Positions 31,542 to 42,961 of a stretch of 64,000 nt of DNA are shown here, piece after piece. This stretch comes from Syntrophales bacterium. GTDB lineage: Bacteria; Desulfobacterota; Syntrophia; Syntrophales; UBA2210. The DNA is taken from assembly GCA_963662405.2 (NCBI GenBank), contig CAXXKT010000001.1, positions 1,600,001 to 1,664,000 on the forward strand, given 5' to 3'. Within the stretch, counting starts at the first letter, position 1; each line of letters begins with the position of its first letter. Below the pieces are notes generated by a model that saw nothing but the letters and a program-made list of their open reading frames with translations, ran no database searches and was not told where the DNA came from. A program made the translations under genes and the position numbers.

Positions 31542-32888
31542 GTGTTATTCGGATTACTTGAGACGGGATTTCCCCTTTTTTACTGGGGGAATGCCCTGAT
31601 GATCGTGATAGGTCTCGGCTTTATATATCTGGCCATTGCCAAGAAGATGGAGCCCCTTTTGCTAGTTCCGATCGGGTTCGGCATGATACTGGTCAACCTG
31701 CCCCTCGGGGGTATGATGGATTATGAGATGAAGATGAGGGCCCCCCAGGCCGGCACGGTGATGGAGGTGTCGATGCGGGAAGGGGATTCCTTCCAGAAGG
31801 GTGGGGTCATCTATAAACTCGACTCGGGGGAGATACGGACCCCCGTCTTCGGGCAGGTTGACAGCCTGAAGATATCCACGGGTCAGCATATCGAGAAGGG
31901 GCAGGTGATTGCCTCTCTCATTACGATGGAACAGACCAACCAGGCGGAGTACTCCACCCGTCCCGTGGGACTCCTTTCCCGGATCTTCCAGTTCGGTGTG
32001 ATGTGGCAGATCCTCCCACCGCTCATGTTTCTGTGCCTTGGCGCGTTGACCGATTTCGGTCCCATGCTCGCCAATCCCCGAACCCTGCTGTTGGGGGCTG
32101 CGGCGCAGTTCGGTGTCTATCTGGCATTCTTCCTGTCCCTGATCTGCGGCTTCAGCATGACGGAGGCGGCATCCATCGGGATCATTGGGGGGGCCGAAGG
32201 GCCCACCACCATCTATGTCACGTCACTCCTTGCCCCACATATCATCGGGGCTACGGCCGTCGCCTGTTATTCCTACATGGCGCTGGTCCCCATTATTCTT
32301 CCCCCGGTGATACGGCTCCTGACCACGAAGAAGGAGCGGCAGATCTACATGAAACCGTCTCTCCGAAAGGTATCGAAACTGGAGAAGATCCTCTTTCCAC
32401 TGATAACAACCATTATCGTCATCCTGATTATTCCCTCATCCGCGCCCCTCATGGGATGTTTCATGGTGGGGAACCTCTTCAAGGAGTGCGGCGTCACGGA
32501 TCGACTCAACAAGACGGCTCAGACGACCTTTGTTGACATCATTACGATTTTTCTGACTCTTGCCATCGGTGCGTCAATGCCGGCGCAGAACTTTCTGCAG
32601 CCCCGGACGCTCCTGATCCTCATCCTGGGTGTCATCTCCTTTGCCAGTGCGGCGGCGGCGGGGGTTATCCTTGCGAAGGTCATGAACCTGTTCCTGAAGG
32701 AGAAGATCAACCCGATGATCGGGGCCGCCGGTGTCTCAGCCGTCCCCATGTCGGCACGGGTTGTTCAGGTGATGGGGCAGAAGGAGAACAAGCAGAACTA
32801 TCTCTTGATGCACGCGATGGGGCCCAATGTGGCCGGGGCCATCGGCGCGGCTATTGCCGGTGGTGTATTCCTGGGAATACTGGGATAA
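31542..32888 (+). CDS. Na+-translocating decarboxylase beta subunit (OadB/GcdB/MmdB family)
   Basis: EPLLLVPIGFG, GALTDFGP, GAAAQFG, IGIIGGAEGPT, GAAGVSAVPMSARV, HAMGPNVAG. Confidence 0.93.
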   Translation: MLFGLLETGFPLFYWGNALMIVIGLGFIYLAIAKKMEPLLLVPIGFGMILVNLPLGGMMDYEMKMRAPQAGTVMEVSMREGDSFQKGGVIYKLDSGEIRTPVFGQVDSLKISTGQHIEKGQVIASLITMEQTNQAEYSTRPVGLLSRIFQFGVMWQILPPLMFLCLGALTDFGPMLANPRTLLLGAAAQFGVYLAFFLSLICGFSMTEAASIGIIGGAEGPTTIYVTSLLAPHIIGATAVACYSYMALVPIILPPVIRLLTTKKERQIYMKPSLRKVSKLEKILFPLITTIIVILIIPSSAPLMGCFMVGNLFKECGVTDRLNKTAQTTFVDIITIFLTLAIGASMPAQNFLQPRTLLILILGVISFASAAAAGVILAKVMNLFLKEKINPMIGAAGVSAVPMSARVVQVMGQKENKQNYLLMHAMGPNVAGAIGAAIAGGVFLGILG

Positions 32889-35334: not shown

Positions 35335-35598
35335 TTAGAGGACGATTTCGATCGCCGGGTCTTCGCGCAGTTGGTTATAGACCCCTGTACGGTGCCTCTC
35401 ATCAACAACCATCACTTCAAGGTTCAAACAGTGGTATTTACCCGTTCTACTGGTATTGGACGGTGTGATCGTGCAGGCGCAGTCCCGGACAATTTTCCCT
35501 ATGGCCTCTTCCATTGCCTTTTCGTCAGGGCCGATTACTTTATAGATCCACCGGCAGGGATATTCCATGACGGGCCTTGGGCCGTTTTCGGTGATCAT
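35335..35598 (-). CDS. DUF493/YbeD-like protein
   Basis: EYPCRWIYKVIG and SRTGKY motifs. Confidence 0.8.
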   Translation of the reverse strand: MITENGPRPVMEYPCRWIYKVIGPDEKAMEEAIGKIVRDCACTITPSNTSRTGKYHCLNLEVMVVDERHRTGVYNQLREDPAIEIVL

Positions 35599-35630
35599 TC
35601 TTTTTTGCACCTCTTTCCCCGGTCGAGCAG

Positions 35631-36731
35631 TCAGTATCGAAAAATAGCGGCGAGGGGGGCATCGTTCGGCATTTCTCCCGGTTTGGTCGGATATACGGTG
35701 CCTCCATTCAGGATCGTCTGTATGGCCGCCAGATCAAGAAGGTCTTCATTGCCGGTCTTGGCCTTTGAGGTCAGCCTGACCGTATCGGTGGTCGGATCGA
35801 ACGTTCCCCATCGCTGAATTCCCACTGGGACGAATAGGATGCCAATACGTCCGTGGAAGGCTCCCCGGACGATCTCTTCGATGTTTTCGGATGTCAGGCC
35901 GGTCCCGGTATTTTGTCGGTACTGTGCCACCGCTTCGGTCTTTTTTGTCTTGGAGACCCTTTCCATGATTGGCCATGCGAGTTCGCTCAACCGCTCGGCA
36001 CTCAGCCCTTCCGGATTACCCGATATCGACGTGTCCAAGAGATGAGCGTAGGTGTTCGCCTCTTTGTATATGGGGAACAGATAGTCCACCCCGGCAAAGA
36101 TGAGGGGCGACTTGTGGTCTCTCAATAGTTCCCGCAGCCCTTTGTCGACGAGCTGAAAGTATTGTAAAATTTTGGCTTTTACATCTTCTGTGCCGGTATG
36201 ACGCTGGAGACGTTTTTCGAAGTCATCAAGATTCAGCGCTTCGTCAAGATTTGCGGGGAGGTTCTCAATGCCTGTTTCAACGATCCGTTGCAGTGAGCAC
36301 CGCACAAACCGGATTTCATTCTGGCTGATTGCGAGGATGGAAAATTCGGCATCTGAGATTAGGACCGGTATCAAAGGTTTCACGTGAAAGCGATCGGTTA
36401 CCACTACCAGTTCCTCGAAGGGTTGCGACAGCCGATAAAAGGTGAACCATTCCGATGACAGGAACAGGGCAAGCCCGTCGCTCTGAGAACTCCAAAAGGG
36501 TACATCTCCCGCCAGTTCCTGCGCCGGTGCGAGCATCTCCTTTATCTCCGAGGGACGCAGATCGCCGCTGGCGAGGAGGCGTTCCTCGGCGCTTCTGAGC
36601 AGATTTTTGTACCGTATCTGATTCTGCTGAATTTCAGGTCCCTTTCTAATCGTAGGCATATAGAGGGAAACACAAATTCCAAGCTGTTGATGCATCAAAG
36701 ACTTGAGTTCGTTTCCGGATAGTATGTCCAT
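35631..36731 (-). CDS. bacterial archaeo-eukaryotic release-factor-like protein (baeRF3/7; Balon-like)
   Basis: CVSLYMPT, IRYKNLL, GLALF, FHVKPL, PLIFAG, GNPE, GRIGILFV, DLLDLAA..TILNGGTVY, AAIFRY C-terminus. Confidence 0.75.
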   Translation of the reverse strand: MDILSGNELKSLMHQQLGICVSLYMPTIRKGPEIQQNQIRYKNLLRSAEERLLASGDLRPSEIKEMLAPAQELAGDVPFWSSQSDGLALFLSSEWFTFYRLSQPFEELVVVTDRFHVKPLIPVLISDAEFSILAISQNEIRFVRCSLQRIVETGIENLPANLDEALNLDDFEKRLQRHTGTEDVKAKILQYFQLVDKGLRELLRDHKSPLIFAGVDYLFPIYKEANTYAHLLDTSISGNPEGLSAERLSELAWPIMERVSKTKKTEAVAQYRQNTGTGLTSENIEEIVRGAFHGRIGILFVPVGIQRWGTFDPTTDTVRLTSKAKTGNEDLLDLAAIQTILNGGTVYPTKPGEMPNDAPLAAIFRY

Positions 36732-36762: not shown

Positions 36763-37431
36763 CTAAGGTTTTTTTACGACGGTGGGAAGCCATCGGCAGA
36801 TTGGAGACAGGTACCGCGCCACCTGCCCTTTTCGGGGTATCATGAAGATGAAACACTTTTTCTGATCGGGAACTATCGCAATATGTCTGGTAATGCCGGG
36901 GTCGGGATTTCTGGTGATGAAATCCATGAGGCGAGAGCGTGTCTCAATAGTCTCATAGTACACGTGGAACGTGTGGTCCCCCCACGTTGTCGTTTCCCGG
37001 TTCAGGCGCTCCGGGTGGGTGATCTTTGCCCCGGCGAACCGGGAATACTGTTTTTCTATGAGGTGACATTCTTCCTCCGGTTTGTTCTTGACGTACAGCT
37101 CTATGAATAACCGGTCGTACTTTCTGATCAGTTTTGAAAATGGGAGATACAGCCATGAATGCCGGGGGAGCATGGTGATGGTGGCATCGACGCGCGACAG
37201 GAACGCCCCCTTCTTTCTGATGAAGAGATTGGCATGGTAGCCGATGGCCCCCCCGATATTCGTAAAGGTCTGATCGTCGGGGTGAAACACCTCCATGAGG
37301 TCGTTAAAGGCACTGAGAAAAAGCTCCTTGTTTTGTCTTCTTCCCCAGAAGTAACCGAATGTGAGGAGAAAGGAAAACGCGACAAAGAGAAAAAAGACAG
37401 GTTGTGTTAAAATGTGTTCGTATTTGAACAT
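36763..37431 (-). CDS. N-terminally anchored membrane protein (CCDC47/DUF1682-like by eye)
   Basis: TM followed by YFWGRRQNKEL...FN, later LPRHSWLY...DRLFIEL; immediately follows the ATPase gene. Confidence 0.6.
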   Translation of the reverse strand: MFKYEHILTQPVFFLFVAFSFLLTFGYFWGRRQNKELFLSAFNDLMEVFHPDDQTFTNIGGAIGYHANLFIRKKGAFLSRVDATITMLPRHSWLYLPFSKLIRKYDRLFIELYVKNKPEEECHLIEKQYSRFAGAKITHPERLNRETTTWGDHTFHVYYETIETRSRLMDFITRNPDPGITRHIAIVPDQKKCFIFMIPRKGQVARYLSPICRWLPTVVKKP

Positions 37432-37442
37432 AGAATCAATGG

Positions 37443-38369
37443 TTACCACGAATCGGGAATAATACCTTCCCGGACATCATACAGGGTGCCTTTCTCCCCG
37501 TCAAGGAGAGTCTTTGACAGCTCAATGCGTTCCAAGAGGACGTCCCCTGCCGTTTTCTTCATCTGATCTTCGACGTGCCTCGCCATCTCTTTATTTGTCT
37601 CCGTTATCTTGTTGTTGATGAGGAGCCGTAAGGGAAGGCCCAGTTCGCGGAGACCTTCGATCAAGCGTTGGGATTCCCTGAGCGAGAGGATATCGGGATT
37701 GAATACCAGGGCGACATGACAGTCTCCGCCGCGGAGGGCACTGTCCAGATCTTGGTAATTTTTGTCCAGCTTCTTCAAACGTTTGAGGATGTCGTCATCC
37801 TCTTCTCTGTAGTCAAGGATGGTTTCTTCCGTGCTCAAGGTCCCCCTGATCCGGTGGATGGTGTAGCGCTTTTCGAGAATCTGCCGCCGTATCTGCATCA
37901 GGCGCTCGATCCAGGTGATGGTCACCTTCGGAAGAGCGAGGAACCGCAGGGTTAGCCCCGTCGGTGGAGTGTCGAAGATGATATAGTCAAACCCGGTCTC
38001 GTCCCGGATGGTTTTCTCTATGCTGGTCAGGAGGGCGTATTCCTCTATCCCGGGGGAGTATTTAAGGATCGAGAAATAGGTGTCGAGATTCAGAGTCTTC
38101 AGGTAGCTGTATGTGTTGGAGAGGACACTGGTCTCTTGTTCCAGATATTCGCGGGACAACTTCTGGAGGTTTACCTCGCTCAGAAAGAGTGTCTTCGTGA
38201 ATTTTTTCTTTCCGTTTCTGATCGTAACCCCAAAGATATCACCAAGGTTATGCGCCGGGTCCAGCGAGACGATCAAGACGCGGGACCGCTGCGAAAGCTG
38301 CCATGCCGCGGCGGCTGCCATGGTCGATTTCCCGACCCCCCCCTTTCCGGTAAAAAAGAAGATCTTCAT
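37443..38369 (-). CDS. ArsA/Get3(TRC40)-family ATPase, single domain
   Basis: GKGGVGKST, SLDPAHNL, SPGIEE, FDTPPTG, LINNK; only one Cys. Confidence 0.9.
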   Translation of the reverse strand: MKIFFFTGKGGVGKSTMAAAAAWQLSQRSRVLIVSLDPAHNLGDIFGVTIRNGKKKFTKTLFLSEVNLQKLSREYLEQETSVLSNTYSYLKTLNLDTYFSILKYSPGIEEYALLTSIEKTIRDETGFDYIIFDTPPTGLTLRFLALPKVTITWIERLMQIRRQILEKRYTIHRIRGTLSTEETILDYREEDDDILKRLKKLDKNYQDLDSALRGGDCHVALVFNPDILSLRESQRLIEGLRELGLPLRLLINNKITETNKEMARHVEDQMKKTAGDVLLERIELSKTLLDGEKGTLYDVREGIIPDSW

Positions 38370-38645
38370 TCAATCGATCCCTATGGTTCCGGCCATTTCC
38401 GCAAGCATGTCCCCCGCGTCCTGAGCCCTTCTGTTCAGGACCTTCATCTCCCGCTCCATGAAGGGCATCAGTTCAACAGCTAGAAACGAAGGGGGGGCGG
38501 GGAGTCCGATGAAGGATCCCAAGAGGAGCAGGGCGAAGATGTTCTCGAGTTCCTTTACCTCGACTCCGGTGAGAGCGGTGACGTTGTCCCGGTGAGAGGC
38601 GTCGAAATCGGAAAGGATCCGTTTGAAAAGTGAGAGAAATCCCAT
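38370..38645 (-). CDS. small CstA/ArsA-associated protein (91 aa)
   Basis: MGFLSLFKRILSDFD...ELENIFALLLLGSFIGLPAPP...ELMPFM; its stop abuts the ATPase start. Confidence 0.75.
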   Translation of the reverse strand: MGFLSLFKRILSDFDASHRDNVTALTGVEVKELENIFALLLLGSFIGLPAPPSFLAVELMPFMEREMKVLNRRAQDAGDMLAEMAGTIGID

Positions 38646-38676
38646 GCTGATATCCCGACACCTGTGGTTGATAGAG

Positions 38677-38705
38677 CCGGTGCATGGGCTCAGCCCATGC
38701 ACCGG
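38677..38705 (-). other. perfect 13-bp-stem hairpin 3' of cstA copy 1
   Basis: CCGGTGCATGGGC-TCA-GCCCATGCACCGG. Confidence 0.75.
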
Positions 38706-38724
38706 ATGATGTTATTGTAACATG

Positions 38725-40449
38725 TCACTCAACCCTGTACGCCTTCGACTTGATGAAGTCCCAGAAGAAGATGAAGTTCAGGATCAGCATCACGATCAGT
38801 ATGATCATGACGGTCCATCCCGGGACCGGTTTCGCGGCGATAGCACCTGGCTGAACCACGACTACGAACCATAGGATAGCACAAGTCACGGTAATCCACA
38901 ACAACCAAGCCGGGATGACGGCCGCGCCGGCGAAGCTCGATTTCAGTTTCTTGGCTGCGAAGGCGGCCCCGGTCATCAGGGCGATGGATGCGATGAGCTG
39001 GTTCGCCGCGCCGAAGGAACCCCAGATGATCAGCCAGTTTCCGCTCGCCGCCAGCCAGATCCCGATCGCCGCCGGGATGATGGAGGCGATCCAGCGGTTG
39101 GTCAGTAGGTTGTATACCCCCGCGGCTTTGTCCTTCAGGGGCAGGGCCATCTCGGAGAGGCAATAGCGCGCCAGGCGGTTGGTGGTATCCAGGGTCGTCA
39201 TGGCGAAGGAGGCGACCCACATCCCGGCGATGATCTTGACGATCTTTGTCGGGATGAAACCCAGCCACGTCGCATTAACCATGTCGGCATACGATTGGAT
39301 AAAGAGATTTGCCTTGGACAGTTTGACCGATGCTGCGGCCTTGGTGAACATGGCGCCCCAGTTTCCTGCGTTTAGTGTCTCGGCCGTCACCCCCGCGTTC
39401 TGGAGTGCCGTGTATCCGAACCCGGCAATGGAGACGATAACGATCGTAGAGAGGAACCCCTCGGTGAACATCGCGCCATAGCCGATCAGAAGCCCGTCAG
39501 TTTCCTTGGTGAGCTGTTTGGACGTTGTGCCTGAGGCCACCAGGGAGTGGAACCCGGACAGGGACCCGCAGGCGATGATCAGAGGGATCGCCGGCCAGAA
39601 GGGTGTCGGTTTGCCTCCCAGGAGGATCGGGGAGAAGGTCGAGAAAGCGGGCACCTCGAAGCCCCTGAAGGCGAAAACGGCGGCGATGAAACCGATCAGG
39701 AGTCCCGTATAGAGCAGCCACGAATTCAGGTAATCCCGCGGCTGGAGCAGGACATTGACCGGGATGGCGGCGGCGATGATGATATAAAAAAAGGTCGCCC
39801 ACATCCACCCGGTGTAGCTCAGCGTGATCCCTTTCAACGCTCCCAACCAGATGGCGGCGCACAGCATCAGGATACCGATGACCGTCGCAACGGCAAAACT
39901 CATCTTAGTGCGATACATGAAAATGCCCAATATCAGAGCTGCTACGATCATCCAGGCAAATGCAGAGCCGATCTCAGGGGTCTTGACGAACATCCCGCCG
40001 ACGATGGCGGCGAAGGCGGCCACGACGAGGATGAGGAGGAAGAAAACGATCCAGTAGAAGGCCGTCCCCGTCCGTTTCCCGATCAGATCGGTCGCGACGA
40101 ACTGGACCGATTTTCCGTCGTAACGGACCGATGCCATCAGGGCCAGGTAGTCATGGACGGCCCCGATAAAGATGTTGCCGAACCAGACCCATAGAAGACC
40201 CGGGACCCACCCCCAGCAGATCGCCAACGCCGGGCCGATGATCGGAGCGGCGCCGGCGATCGAGGCGAAATGGTGTCCGAAGAGGACCTCTTTTCGTGCT
40301 GCGATGTAGTCGACCCCGTCGTACAGACGTTTCGACGGAGTCTCGTTGCTATCCGATGCCATCACCACTTCTCGTTCCAACTTTTTTCCGTATGTGAAAT
40401 AGAGTATCAGGTAAAGAAGGAACCCTATAATAATAATGAGAGTTGTCAT
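38725..40449 (-). CDS. cstA: carbon starvation CstA-family transporter, paralogue 1
   Basis: LFGHHFASIAGAAPIIGP, GAVHDY, LLQPRDYLN, IACGSLSGFHSLV, IGYGAMFTEG, TTLDT, FGAANQL. Confidence 0.93.
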   Translation of the reverse strand: MTTLIIIIGFLLYLILYFTYGKKLEREVVMASDSNETPSKRLYDGVDYIAARKEVLFGHHFASIAGAAPIIGPALAICWGWVPGLLWVWFGNIFIGAVHDYLALMASVRYDGKSVQFVATDLIGKRTGTAFYWIVFFLLILVVAAFAAIVGGMFVKTPEIGSAFAWMIVAALILGIFMYRTKMSFAVATVIGILMLCAAIWLGALKGITLSYTGWMWATFFYIIIAAAIPVNVLLQPRDYLNSWLLYTGLLIGFIAAVFAFRGFEVPAFSTFSPILLGGKPTPFWPAIPLIIACGSLSGFHSLVASGTTSKQLTKETDGLLIGYGAMFTEGFLSTIVIVSIAGFGYTALQNAGVTAETLNAGNWGAMFTKAAASVKLSKANLFIQSYADMVNATWLGFIPTKIVKIIAGMWVASFAMTTLDTTNRLARYCLSEMALPLKDKAAGVYNLLTNRWIASIIPAAIGIWLAASGNWLIIWGSFGAANQLIASIALMTGAAFAAKKLKSSFAGAAVIPAWLLWITVTCAILWFVVVVQPGAIAAKPVPGWTVMIILIVMLILNFIFFWDFIKSKAYRVE

Positions 40450-40798
40450 TTGCGTTACTCCTTAATTGACTGTAATTTTATCGTTTCGATAGATGTCCAA
40501 CAAAACCAACGAACATTCTTTTGACTTTGAATAGCCCACAACACCTCCTTCCTCGAATTTCAGGTGCGTGCACTACTCCTTCAGGAGGTCAAAGTCAAAT
40601 TTTTTTGACAATTTTTCCTTTGGGCGATCAATATCCGTGGTGATGTAAGGATTTGTAGTTTTGGAGAAAACTATTTCCCTGAGAAGTATTTGATAGAAAG
40701 TACCCGTTTTCCTATCCGGTATGATGGCACTATAAGCGAAGCAATTTGCGAAAAGGCAGGAGTGGTGATACTCAAATAATCTGCGATCTCATGCATGA

Positions 40799-40833
40799 GA
40801 GCCGGTACATGGGGTAAACCCACGTACCGGCTC
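40799..40833 (-). other. hairpin 3' of cstA copy 2, homologous to 38677-38705
   Basis: Minus strand GAGCCGGTACGTGGG-TTTAC-CCCATGTACCGGCTC (one G-U pair). Confidence 0.7.
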
Positions 40834-40856
40834 CACATCACTGCTGTGCAAACATG

Positions 40857-42581
40857 TCACTCAACCTTGTACGCCTTTGACTTGATGAAGTCCCAGAAGA
40901 AGATGAAGTTCAGGATCAACATCACGATCAGGATGATCATGACGGTCCATCCGGGACCCGGTTTCGCGGCGACGGCGCCCGGCTGAACCACGATGACGAA
41001 CCACAGGATGCCGCAGGTCACGGTGACCCAGAGGAGCCAGGCCGGGATGACGGCCGCGCCGGCGAAGCTCGATTTCAGCTTCTTGGCCGCGAAGGCGGCC
41101 CCGGTCATGAGGGCGATGGACGCGATGAGCTGGTTCGCCGCACCGAAGGAGCCCCAGATGATCAGCCAGTTCCCGCTTGCCGCCAGCCAGATACCGATCG
41201 CCGCCGGGACGATGGAGGCGATCCAGCGGTTGGTCAGGAAGTTATAAACTCCAGCAGCGCTGTCTTTCAGGGGCAGGGCCATCTCGGAGAGGCAATAGCG
41301 CGCCAGGCGGTTGGTGGTATCCAGGGTCGTCATGGCGAAGGAGGCGACCCACATCCCGGCGATGATCTTGACGATCTTGGTCGGGATGATGGTGAGCCAC
41401 GTCGCATTGACCATATCGGCATACGACTGGACGAAGAGGTTGGCTGCGGAAAGCTTTGCCGCTCCGGATACCTTCGTAAAGGCGGCGCCCCAGTTCTCGA
41501 AATTGAGCTGTTCGGTCGTCACTCCCGCGTTCTGGAGTGCCGTGTATCCGAACCCGGCAATGGAGACGATAACGATCGTGGAGAGGAACCCCTCGGTGAA
41601 CATCGCCCCGTATCCGATGAAGAGACCGTCGGTCTCCTTGGAGAGCTGCTTGGATGTTGTCCCCGAGGCGACCAGGGAGTGGAACCCGGAGAGGGAACCG
41701 CAGGCGATGATCAGGGGGATCGCCGGCCAGAAGGGTGTCGGTTTGCCCCCCAGGAGGACCGGGGAGAAGCTCGAAAAGGCCGGCACCTCGAATCCCCTGA
41801 AGGCGAAGATGGCGGCGAGGAAGCCGAGAACCAGTCCCGCGTAGAGCAGCCACGAGTTCAGGTAATCCCGCGGCTGGAGCAGGATATTGACCGGGATGGC
41901 GGCGGCGATGATGATGTAGAAGAAGAAGATCCACATCCAGGTATTGTAGCTCAGCGGTATTCCCTTCAGATACCCTACCCAGATAGCGGCGCACAGCATC
42001 ACGATTCCGATGATCGTCGAGACGGCGAAGTTCATCTTGGTGCGGTACAACAGGACACCCAGGATCAGGGCGGCCACGATCTTCAGGACGTACGCCATGG
42101 CGATGCCGGGAGTCTTGACGAACATGTTGCCGACGATGGCGGCGAAGGCGGCCACGACGAGGATGAGGAGGAAAAAGACAATCCAGTAGAAGGCCGTCCC
42201 CGTCCGTTTCCCGATCAGATCGGTGGCGACGAACTGGACCGATTTCCCGTCGTAGCGGACCGACGCCATCAGGGCCAGGTAGTCATGGACGGCGCCGATG
42301 AAGATGTTGCCGAACCAGACCCAGAGGAGCCCCGGGACCCAACCCCAGCAGATCGCCAGCGCCGGGCCGATGATCGGGGCGGCACCGGCGATCGACGCAA
42401 AGTGGTGTCCGAAGAGGACCTCTTTTCGTGCGGCGATGTAGTCGACCCCGTCATACAGACGCTTCGATGGGGCCTCGTTGTCGTCCGAGGCGACCACCAC
42501 GCCGCTTTCCAGCTTTTTGCCGTAGGTAAAATAAAGGATTAGGTAAAGCAGAAAACCGATAACGATGATTAATGTTGTCAT
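40857..42581 (-). CDS. cstA: carbon starvation CstA-family transporter, paralogue 2
   Basis: Same motifs and same 574-aa length as paralogue 1; AAGGAGG RBS. Confidence 0.93.
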   Translation of the reverse strand: MTTLIIVIGFLLYLILYFTYGKKLESGVVVASDDNEAPSKRLYDGVDYIAARKEVLFGHHFASIAGAAPIIGPALAICWGWVPGLLWVWFGNIFIGAVHDYLALMASVRYDGKSVQFVATDLIGKRTGTAFYWIVFFLLILVVAAFAAIVGNMFVKTPGIAMAYVLKIVAALILGVLLYRTKMNFAVSTIIGIVMLCAAIWVGYLKGIPLSYNTWMWIFFFYIIIAAAIPVNILLQPRDYLNSWLLYAGLVLGFLAAIFAFRGFEVPAFSSFSPVLLGGKPTPFWPAIPLIIACGSLSGFHSLVASGTTSKQLSKETDGLFIGYGAMFTEGFLSTIVIVSIAGFGYTALQNAGVTTEQLNFENWGAAFTKVSGAAKLSAANLFVQSYADMVNATWLTIIPTKIVKIIAGMWVASFAMTTLDTTNRLARYCLSEMALPLKDSAAGVYNFLTNRWIASIVPAAIGIWLAASGNWLIIWGSFGAANQLIASIALMTGAAFAAKKLKSSFAGAAVIPAWLLWVTVTCGILWFVIVVQPGAVAAKPGPGWTVMIILIVMLILNFIFFWDFIKSKAYKVE

Positions 42582-42961
42582 CCCGTACCTCCTTATTGTG
42601 ATAGGTCAAGAATTGGACAAACACGATACCTCTCTATCCTGCGATAAAACCTCCCCCATACTACTACGATTCTAGCAAAGCTACCTCTTAAGAAATTCAA
42701 AGTCAATTTTTTTTTGTTCTGTTGTCGTTTAGAGAGAAAGTCCATGATACGGCGGACACTGGAATTTATCGCACCCTTCGTTCGTGTTGTTCTGTTCTTG
42801 AATCTCTGTCTACAAGATATTGCCAATTCGGTAAAACAGGGGATGACACAACATAAATGCCGGCAGTCAATGTACGACTGAAACGTTTTATTGGGACAGG
42901 TGTGTCCGGTGCCGTGTCACGGAGATAACGCCCCGGAAGCGGGCCGTCTTAATCTGACGGC

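Follow-up and report, generated by a model that had tools for sequence, protein, structure and literature searches.

A Get3-like ATPase and a putative CCDC47 relative encoded beside tandem cstA genes in a Syntrophales bacterium

Castillo and Saier (2010; PMC2963123) described 26 operons in which cstA is joined to a gene for a single-domain homolog of ArsA. A protein of approximately 90 amino acids (aa), CstX, is encoded in 24 of these operons, and an approximately 210-aa protein with a single transmembrane (TM) segment, CstY, was reported in five archaea only; CstX was proposed to couple ATP hydrolysis to CstA transport. A five-gene cluster in a 64,000-nucleotide (nt) stretch of a Syntrophales bacterium genome (GenBank assembly GCA_963662405.2, contig CAXXKT010000001.1, positions 1,600,001 to 1,664,000 of the forward strand; this whole stretch is called the window) is a further copy of this published cstA-cstX-arsA homolog-cstY module, to which it adds only a tandem cstA.

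The individual components also have described relatives. E. coli CstA requires its small neighbor YbdD for pyruvate uptake (PMC5847655), and mycobacterial TtfA is a stable cofactor of MmpL3 that is required for transport (PMC6593404). The PAT complex, which contains CCDC47, is said in a 2026 review to have no obvious bacterial homologs (PMC13261788). Bacterial single-domain Get3-like ATPases are described as uncharacterized and are expected to bind hydrophobic sequences (PMC6593721). A literature follow-up on the cstA-cstX-arsA-cstY module returned PMC2963123 as the only paper on the subject and no experimental test, and no paper was found linking CCDC47 to CstY, TtfA or prokaryotes in a search that had most subscription journals outside its reach. 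Two observations were not found in print: that CstY is widespread in bacteria, and that it is a latch-less CCDC47 relative sharing its fold with TtfA.

A conserved core of CstA, CstX and the ATPase

The window cluster contains cstA, a cstX of about 90 aa, a gene for a single-domain ArsA homolog and a single-TM cstY of about 210 aa, with no ars genes, as in the operons of Castillo and Saier (2010). The names CstX and CstY are assigned by size, topology and position relative to the published descriptions, and not from the sequences of that paper. As the first-pass annotation of the window had described, the five genes are co-oriented and the last three are tightly packed: the ATG of the ATPase gene directly abuts the stop codon of the 91-aa cstX open reading frame (ORF), and an 11-base-pair (bp) gap separates the ATPase gene from that for the 222-aa CstY. 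The nearest named relatives of cstY come from Syntrophales/Syntrophaceae-type deltaproteobacterial metagenome-assembled genomes (MAGs; 80-89% identity). The family extends to archaea, since relatives with the same gene order include locus L172, which lies beside a gene for archaeal ribosomal protein S26e, and one ESM cluster of CstY relatives is 70% archaeal.

A search at E values up to 0.001 recovered 241 CstY representatives among 1.84 billion. Two sets of loci were compared: a close set, consisting of the best 80 of 135 confirmed GTDB cstY loci, and a distant set, the best 80 of 93 metagenome loci from one distant CstY clade. A quick-mode CstY tree, in which 54 of 112 inner branches are open, served only to choose this clade. 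The loci are mutually related and some are duplicates, so the counts are not independent. Among the close loci, tblastn detected the ATPase in 79/80, cstX in 76/80 and cstA in 70/80; the corresponding ORF-based hidden Markov model counts are 79/80, 74/80 and 68/80. The misses fall mostly at contig ends, and one locus, L079, carries cstY alone. The distant loci yielded the ATPase in 76/80, cstX in 66/80 and cstA in 61/80. When at least 3.5 kb of upstream sequence is available, all three genes are present in 51 of 52 loci of the close set and in 44 of 46 of the distant set (95/98), the exceptions being L079, L172 and L175, and the order cstA-cstX-ATPase-cstY is kept from deltaproteobacteria to archaea. 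The co-occurrence that the first-pass annotation had mentioned for other prokaryotes is therefore borne out as a conserved module.

The distribution of the components across 301 genomes of the window's phylum distinguishes a core from an optional part. CstA was detected in 157 of these genomes, a count that spans several CstA subfamilies, CstX in 49 and CstY in 14, with the qualification that a divergent cstY could escape detection. Both cstX and cstY occur in 12 genomes; cstX is found without cstY in 37 of 49, and cstY without cstX in 2 of 14. The corresponding stretches were fetched for 20 of the 37 genomes positive for cstX and negative for cstY, and all 20 contain cstA-cstX-ATPase, 18 of them with a pair of ATPase genes. 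No cstY-like gene was found in these 20 stretches, some of which reach contig ends and in which a very divergent cstY could escape notice. Because the three genes remain together in every such locus, CstA, CstX and the ATPase make up the core of the module, to which CstY is an optional addition.

Variant arrangements of cstY were also observed. The gene stands straight behind cstA, with neither cstX nor the ATPase gene between them, in L109 and L184, and straight behind a major facilitator superfamily (MFS) gene, again with neither between, in L107 and L108, both weak members of the family (E about 1e-8). In L107 (6382-13292) the divergent cstY-like gene after the MFS gene converges on a cstA-cstX-two-ATPase cluster accompanied by a 183-aa gene; in L108 (7054-9107) the cstA cluster is absent. 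A second cstY follows the first in 23 of the 80 close loci (for example L034:7001-8356), and these tandem paralogs, in L034 and the 22 other loci, share approximately 40-58% identity with the window's CstY. Formation of a heterodimer by such paralogs is possible. A DUF59/FeS_assembly_P gene (PF01883) is present in 52 of the 160 cstY loci (8/80 close, 44/80 distant), mostly between the ATPase gene and cstY (for example L116:5702-5995 and L110:7540-7812); some copies contain CxxC and many have no cysteine.

Folds and motifs of CstY, CstX and the ATPase

The first-pass annotation had called the 222-aa CstY CCDC47-like, a proposal that begins from a weak sequence match and is confirmed by the predicted structure. 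CstY scores 18.4 bits (E = 0.0013) against the Pfam CCDC47 model (PF07946), below the gathering cut-off of 27.7 bits. Matches at E values up to 0.01 were obtained for 19 of 115 aligned CstY relatives, the best at 27.1 bits (E = 2.8e-6) and none over the cut-off; several of the 19 span the TM segment and the next helix only. No other family matched more than once among the 115 relatives, and none of 22 unrelated control ORFs with a hydrophobic stretch at the N-terminus matched CCDC47 at E values up to 0.05 (2 of 24 candidate controls were excluded because they lay antisense to cstA or to the ATPase gene). When profiles built from CstY alignments were searched against PDB sequences, CCDC47 was not matched, and sequence alone is thus insufficient to bridge the two families. 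A six-frame genome search with the Pfam CCDC47 model misses cstY itself, so the absence of matches in 14 control genomes (0/14) is uninformative. No longer or fused CstY was found between 421 and 2000 aa, which is weak evidence given that the range of 390-420 aa lay outside the search.

The AlphaFold2 (AF2) model of CstY has a predicted local distance difference test (pLDDT) score of 96.5. Foldseek matched it to 7tm3_4 (E = 1.6e-8) and 9i78_4 (E = 6.9e-8). In a VIA structural scan of 48,161 chains, the model matched 7tut_4 with Z 16.7 (root-mean-square deviation 3.4, 210 residues aligned, 11% identity), 9i78_4 with Z 15.3 and mycobacterial TtfA (PDB 6T84) with Z 10.1 (152 aligned); the next row scored 6.4. 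Chains 7tm3_4, 7tut_4 and 6w6l_7, from rabbit and human, are taken to be CCDC47. Chain 9i78_4 is read as CCDC47 because its aligned residues 76-368 equal the block of TM segment plus globular domain at residues 76-370 (PMC12572126). The predicted structure of CstY therefore contains the CCDC47 fold, a TM anchor followed by a globular domain, and TtfA is the only prokaryotic structure clearly of this fold. The CstY model ends at residue 222, which aligns to residue 368 of 9i78_4 and 397 of 7tut_4. In CCDC47, the latch helices come after residue 370 (PMC12572126) and wedge between the ribosome and Sec61. CstY ends where the latch helices start, and the main ribosome and Sec61 contacts are therefore missing. 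Judged by its model, CstY is related to CCDC47 in structure, and weakly in sequence, but has no latch.

CstX had been described in the first-pass annotation as a 91-aa hydrophobic protein. The small size stands; the protein is only mildly hydrophobic (grand average of hydropathicity 0.35, one marginal segment at 39-57) and is predicted to form a helical hairpin rather than several TM segments. Its AF2 model (pLDDT 76) places helices at residues 3-46, 53-76 and 80-87, with a Pro/Gly-rich hydrophobic turn in the hairpin, which suggests a re-entrant anchor in one leaflet with both ends cytoplasmic. The C-terminal helix bears an acidic amphipathic tail motif that is net acidic in 141 of 152 homologs. 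A cysteine occurs in the tail in 37 of 50 close homologs and is lacking from the window's CstX. In L129, L139, L147 and L158, which have two cstX paralogs, the first is without the conserved acidic tail motif. A distant relationship links CstX to the cory-CC-star family, whose model NF041419 it matches at E = 1e-5, short of the cut-off. Sequence searches of Pfam and the PDB gave no match connecting CstX to Asterix, and fold searches returned generic helical hairpins only, with Asterix and Get1 absent from the matches listed.

The ATPase is, as first described, a single-domain protein with one cysteine and the motifs GKGGVGKST, DPAHNL, PGIEE and DTPPTG; the P-loop and the switch I aspartate are intact. 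It scores 167.7 bits against TIGR00345 (GET3/ArsA/TRC40; cut-off 135). Its best single-domain PDB matches are the archaeal homologs 3ug6 (E = 1.4e-29) and 3zq6, with which it aligns through the helix 7-9 insert, a region of TRC40-insert length, and the ArsA match listed (9nbl) stops near residue 149. The CxxC zinc dimerization motif is absent here and is found in 0 of 50 close and 4 of 140 ATPases overall; some functional Get3 proteins also lack it (PMC6593721). The groove is poor in methionine, with one Met in helices 4-9 here and a median of one in 132 homologs, and the insert is 43% charged. Invariant residues in the groove region of 50 close homologs include Y87, Y89, L90, N94, F99 and W153, among others, and 131 of 132 homologs carry a net positive charge in the helix-7/insert stretch. 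All 140 full-length ATPases encoded at cstY loci retain the switch I aspartate; one of the two ATPases of L107 has asparagine in its place.

Whether this protein could serve arsenite or antimonite efflux can be judged from the same features. The Pfam family bears the name ArsA_ATPase, and pairs of single-domain ArsA proteins operate with Acr3 in some Firmicutes (PMC2963123). However, the window protein has a single domain where an ArsA pump has a tandem, and one cysteine, not conserved in a family without conserved cysteines, in place of three metalloid cysteines. It scores 90 bits against the arsenical ArsA model, for which the cut-off is 650. No ars gene occurs among the nine flanking ORFs scanned (29-45 kb of the window), and in the genome (100% complete) ArsD and Acr3 were not matched and nothing exceeded the cut-off for ArsB, arsR and arsC having been outside the genome-wide search. 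The first-pass annotation had noted the lack of ars neighbors and considered efflux unlikely; the scores and the genome search strengthen that judgment, and we reject the role with near certainty. The other ArsA-family ATPase of this genome has two domains and lies in a gas-vesicle cluster, L114 (G000:C3:404000-420000), with genes for GvpL/F, GvpG, Gas_vesicle and an AAA ATPase.

Possible roles of the module

We tentatively favor the reading that the cluster encodes an ATP-switched accessory system that acts on a CstA-family peptide/monocarboxylate transporter in its mature form. The components that stay linked across loci are CstA, CstX and the ATPase, with CstY as an optional extra bearing the CCDC47/TtfA fold. 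In the proposed mechanism, CstX would associate with CstA and lie in the inner leaflet by means of its hydrophobic turn, while its helices and acidic amphipathic tail would be cytoplasmic. The ATPase would dimerize in the manner of Get3, and its groove would hold a single constant partner, the tail of CstX, rather than a range of TM helices; the Met-poor groove and the invariant residues Y87, Y89, L90, N94, F99 and W153 fit such a partner. Binding and release of CstX through the ATP cycle would turn uptake on or off, or license it, in line with the cell's energy state. CstY would remain attached through both TM anchor and globular domain and act as a stabilizing cofactor, as TtfA does for MmpL3, and the two near-identical CstA paralogs probably use one common accessory set. 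Precedents for an accessory complex are provided by TtfA for MmpL3 (PMC6593404) and YbdD for E. coli CstA (PMC5847655). The fold link joining CCDC47, CstY and TtfA suggests an origin of the domain as a cofactor bound to a transporter. Of the functions that the first-pass annotation had offered for the module (chaperoning, inserting or gating CstA), gating or a related accessory role fits better, and insertion fits less well.

Several points weigh against an accessory role of this kind. Gene order, folds and motif conservation are observed; every binding event, and the way in which control runs, is inferred, each mechanistic step being drawn from gene order and fold. Regulation and energization of transport are not separable by sequence. 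At least four methionines are present in 31 of the 132 ATPases, and the number of methionines is not decisive for what Get3-like proteins do (PMC6593721). The match in charge between the acidic CstX tail and the basic helix-7 stretch is weak support, because archaeal Get3 homologs are basic there too. Loci L172 and L175 carry cstX-ATPase-cstY with a flank that has no cstA, and CstY is closer to CCDC47 (Z 16.7) than to TtfA (Z 10.1). A complex prediction (two ATPase chains with CstY and ATP, CstX as partner, 50-row alignments, no controls) scored 0.22 against a mark of 0.32 and is not used either way.

Among the alternatives, a dedicated biogenesis machine would have the ATPase shield hydrophobic segments of CstA or CstX, CstX act as receptor or intramembrane chaperone, and CstY serve as a PAT-like folding factor, with release thereafter. 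The CstY match to CCDC47 across both anchor and globular domain points in this direction, as do the TRC40-insert-length region of the ATPase, its best single-domain PDB matches among archaeal Get3-type proteins and the expectation that bacterial Get3-like homologs bind hydrophobic sequences (PMC6593721); chance is a poor explanation for two eukaryotic biogenesis folds within one operon. Nevertheless, CstY stops at the end of the globular domain (residue 368 of 9i78_4), short of the main ribosome and Sec61 contacts, and the obligate pairing of Asterix with CCDC47 (PMC9816642) is not paralleled by cstX and cstY: of 49 genomes with cstX, 37 lack cstY, and of 14 with cstY, 2 lack cstX. CstA itself is found in 157 of the 301 genomes, across several subfamilies, and CstX in 49. 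CxxC is missing from 50 of 50 close ATPases, the groove is not Met-rich, and the TRC40 insert is no predictor of tail-anchor targeting (Farkas et al., 2019; PMC6593721). We therefore consider dedicated biogenesis rather unlikely. An evolutionary form of this idea, in which CstY would be the prokaryotic ancestral form of CCDC47 and would make up, with CstX and the Get3-like ATPase, a single-client assembly machine for CstA, two parts of which eukaryotes generalized by adding latch helices (CCDC47) and a Met-rich groove (Get3), is in our view unlikely. The first-pass suggestion of a prokaryotic counterpart of the GET and PAT machinery thus holds for the kinship with CCDC47 and the Get3 family, and is weakened by the lack of a latch, of an obligate CstX-CstY pairing and of CxxC and a Met-rich groove, and by the majority of the sampled cstA genomes, in which cstX is not detectable.

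In the proposal of Castillo and Saier (2010), CstA would be a symporter that the ATPase turns into a pump driven by ATP, on the model of ArsA and ArsB, and CstX would be the subunit that couples the two. Co-occurrence and congruent trees in 26 operons (PMC2963123), the switch I aspartate intact in all 140 full-length ATPases of cstY loci, and a host lineage that appears to consist of energy-limited anaerobes (the Syntrophales/Syntrophaceae MAGs being the nearest named relatives) are consistent with energized transport. Yet E. coli CstA imports pyruvate with YbdD, and the excerpt describing it does not mention an ArsA-type partner (PMC5847655); NCBIfam calls the E. coli-type family a pyruvate/proton symporter, the L107 ATPase with asparagine at switch I suits a switch as well as a motor, and the literature search found no experimental test of the proposal, which we likewise judge improbable. 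Still less probable is a role in metal or Fe-S handling, whereby the ATPase and CstX would handle a metal or thiol ligand tied to the CstA cargo, whether by loading, receiving or sensing it. This role would account for the DUF59/FeS_assembly_P gene at 44/80 distant and 8/80 close cstY loci and for the cysteine in the CstX tail of 37 of 50 close homologs, and it recalls the Cys-Cys end for which the cory-CC-star family is named and in which YbdD and YjiX terminate (bioRxiv 2022.07.06.499078). The window's CstX, however, has no cysteine and its cluster no DUF59 gene; many DUF59 copies are likewise free of cysteine, and the ATPase has no conserved one.

This small four-gene system makes the origin of CCDC47 and the role of prokaryotic Get3-like ATPases, including what they bind, directly testable. 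A prokaryotic CCDC47 relative the size of the soluble domain, encoded beside one defined client and a Get3-like ATPase, would allow a test of what the globular domain does without the latch.

The locus and its relation to described systems

The positions of the genes and associated elements are given in the table below. Tandem cstA occurs in 1 of 41 close loci with 7 kb of upstream sequence, and the two genes are the sole cstA matches in the genome. CstA1 and CstA2 both pass Pfam PF02554 (E about 1e-122), and CstA2 has 12 hydrophobic segments above the Kyte-Doolittle threshold; no solved CstA structure was found by sequence search. The copies are 89% identical at the protein level and 86% identical as DNA, a value that falls to 72% for third codon positions, which identifies a genuine duplication instead of a collapsed repeat, and an assembly artifact was rejected as the source of the tandem on the basis of the 86% DNA identity. 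A TTGACTTTGA motif precedes each cstA and a strong hairpin follows it; the gene was therefore duplicated along with its flanks. The tandem is thus a local duplication. The differences between CstA1 and CstA2 cluster at residues 151-270 and 361-390, with residues 61-150 identical, a pattern that possibly reflects distinct substrate preference or partial gene conversion.

The hairpin after cstA1 (91-nt stretch, z -5.2) and that between cstA2 and cstX (88-nt stretch, z -2.9) were each matched in stability by 0 of 200 shuffled sequences upon RNA folding. They have similar outer arms, are G+C-rich and are without a U tract. The one in the cstA2/cstX gap could keep transcripts of the transporter more abundant than those of the accessory genes. 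It is possible that TTGACTTTGA is a promoter or regulator site copied along in the duplication; its sites were not called by the sigma-70 scan, and the motif is a lead only. Sigma-70 and terminator scans ran near chance (7 versus 4.8 and 11 versus 7.5, respectively).

Table. Positions within the window of the cluster genes and associated elements
Feature	Position	Strand	Basis
cstA1, CstA-family multi-TM transporter, 574 aa	40857..42581	-	PF02554, E 6.5e-123
cstA2, CstA-family transporter, 574 aa, in the conserved slot beside cstX	38725..40449	-	PF02554, E 1.2e-121
cstX, 91 aa, DUF7990 (PF25952)	38370..38645	-	PF25952 match on its clusters
Single-domain Get3/ArsA-family ATPase, 308 aa	37443..38369	-	TIGR00345 over cut-off
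cstY, 222 aa, N-terminal TM anchor and predicted CCDC47-type globular domain	36763..37431	-	AF2 model, Foldseek, structural scan
G+C-rich hairpin without U tract, directly 3' of the cstA1 stop	40795..40841	-	RNA fold
13-bp hairpin in the cstA2/cstX gap, arms resembling the cstA1 hairpin	38677..38705	-	RNA fold
TTGACTTTGA motif behind an A run, upstream of cstA1	42697..42706	-	Pairwise alignment
TTGACTTTGA motif, second copy, upstream of cstA2	40589..40598	-	Pairwise alignment

Beyond the cluster, a gene resembling baeRF3-family ribosome hibernation factors (35631-36731, minus strand) starts 31 bp past cstY and is followed on the same strand by a DUF493/HP0495 gene (35335-35610); these genes may share a starvation transcript. 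Farther away, a gene for the beta subunit of a Na+-transporting decarboxylase (31542-32888, plus strand), with a biotin-lipoyl-like domain inserted near the N-terminus, adjoins a carboxyltransferase gene.

The operons of ArsA cluster 14 (PMC2963123) resemble the window cluster most closely. They have the same four components, including a CstX of about 90 aa and a single-TM CstY of about 210 aa, and a single-domain ATPase of approximately 300-330 aa that lacks the ArsA cysteines, and they too are free of ars genes. They differ in that CstY here is bacterial, is assigned the CCDC47 fold (the excerpt of the 2010 paper gives CstY no fold) and stands in a cluster with tandem cstA. The E. coli CstA-YbdD pair (PMC5847655) likewise combines a CstA-family transporter with a needed small co-encoded protein, whereas YbdD belongs to DUF466, a family that CstX did not match, and the E. 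coli CstA is of the long form (model length 701) in contrast to the 574 aa found here. TtfA shares with CstY an N-terminal anchor, the same cytoplasmic fold and a tie to one transporter. Unlike the optional CstY, TtfA is essential and serves a transporter, MmpL3, that is unrelated to CstA, and no ATPase is known for its system in the excerpt consulted (PMC6593404), in contrast to the cstY loci.

CCDC47 of the PAT complex (PDB 7TM3/7TUT and 9I78) is built, like the CstY model, from a TM anchor and a globular alpha/beta domain; CstY is without the luminal N-terminal region and the latch helices, is encoded beside a single transporter, and has in CstX a small neighbor that is not an obligate partner. 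Finally, Get3/TRC40 and its prokaryotic homologs (groups 9-10; PMC6593721) share with the window's ATPase a single SIMIBI domain, an intact P-loop and switches, and the helix 7-9 insert, whereas the ATPase described here differs from Get3/TRC40 in having no CxxC, one Met in helices 4-9 (at least four in fungi; PMC6593721), a strongly charged insert and a place in a transporter operon.

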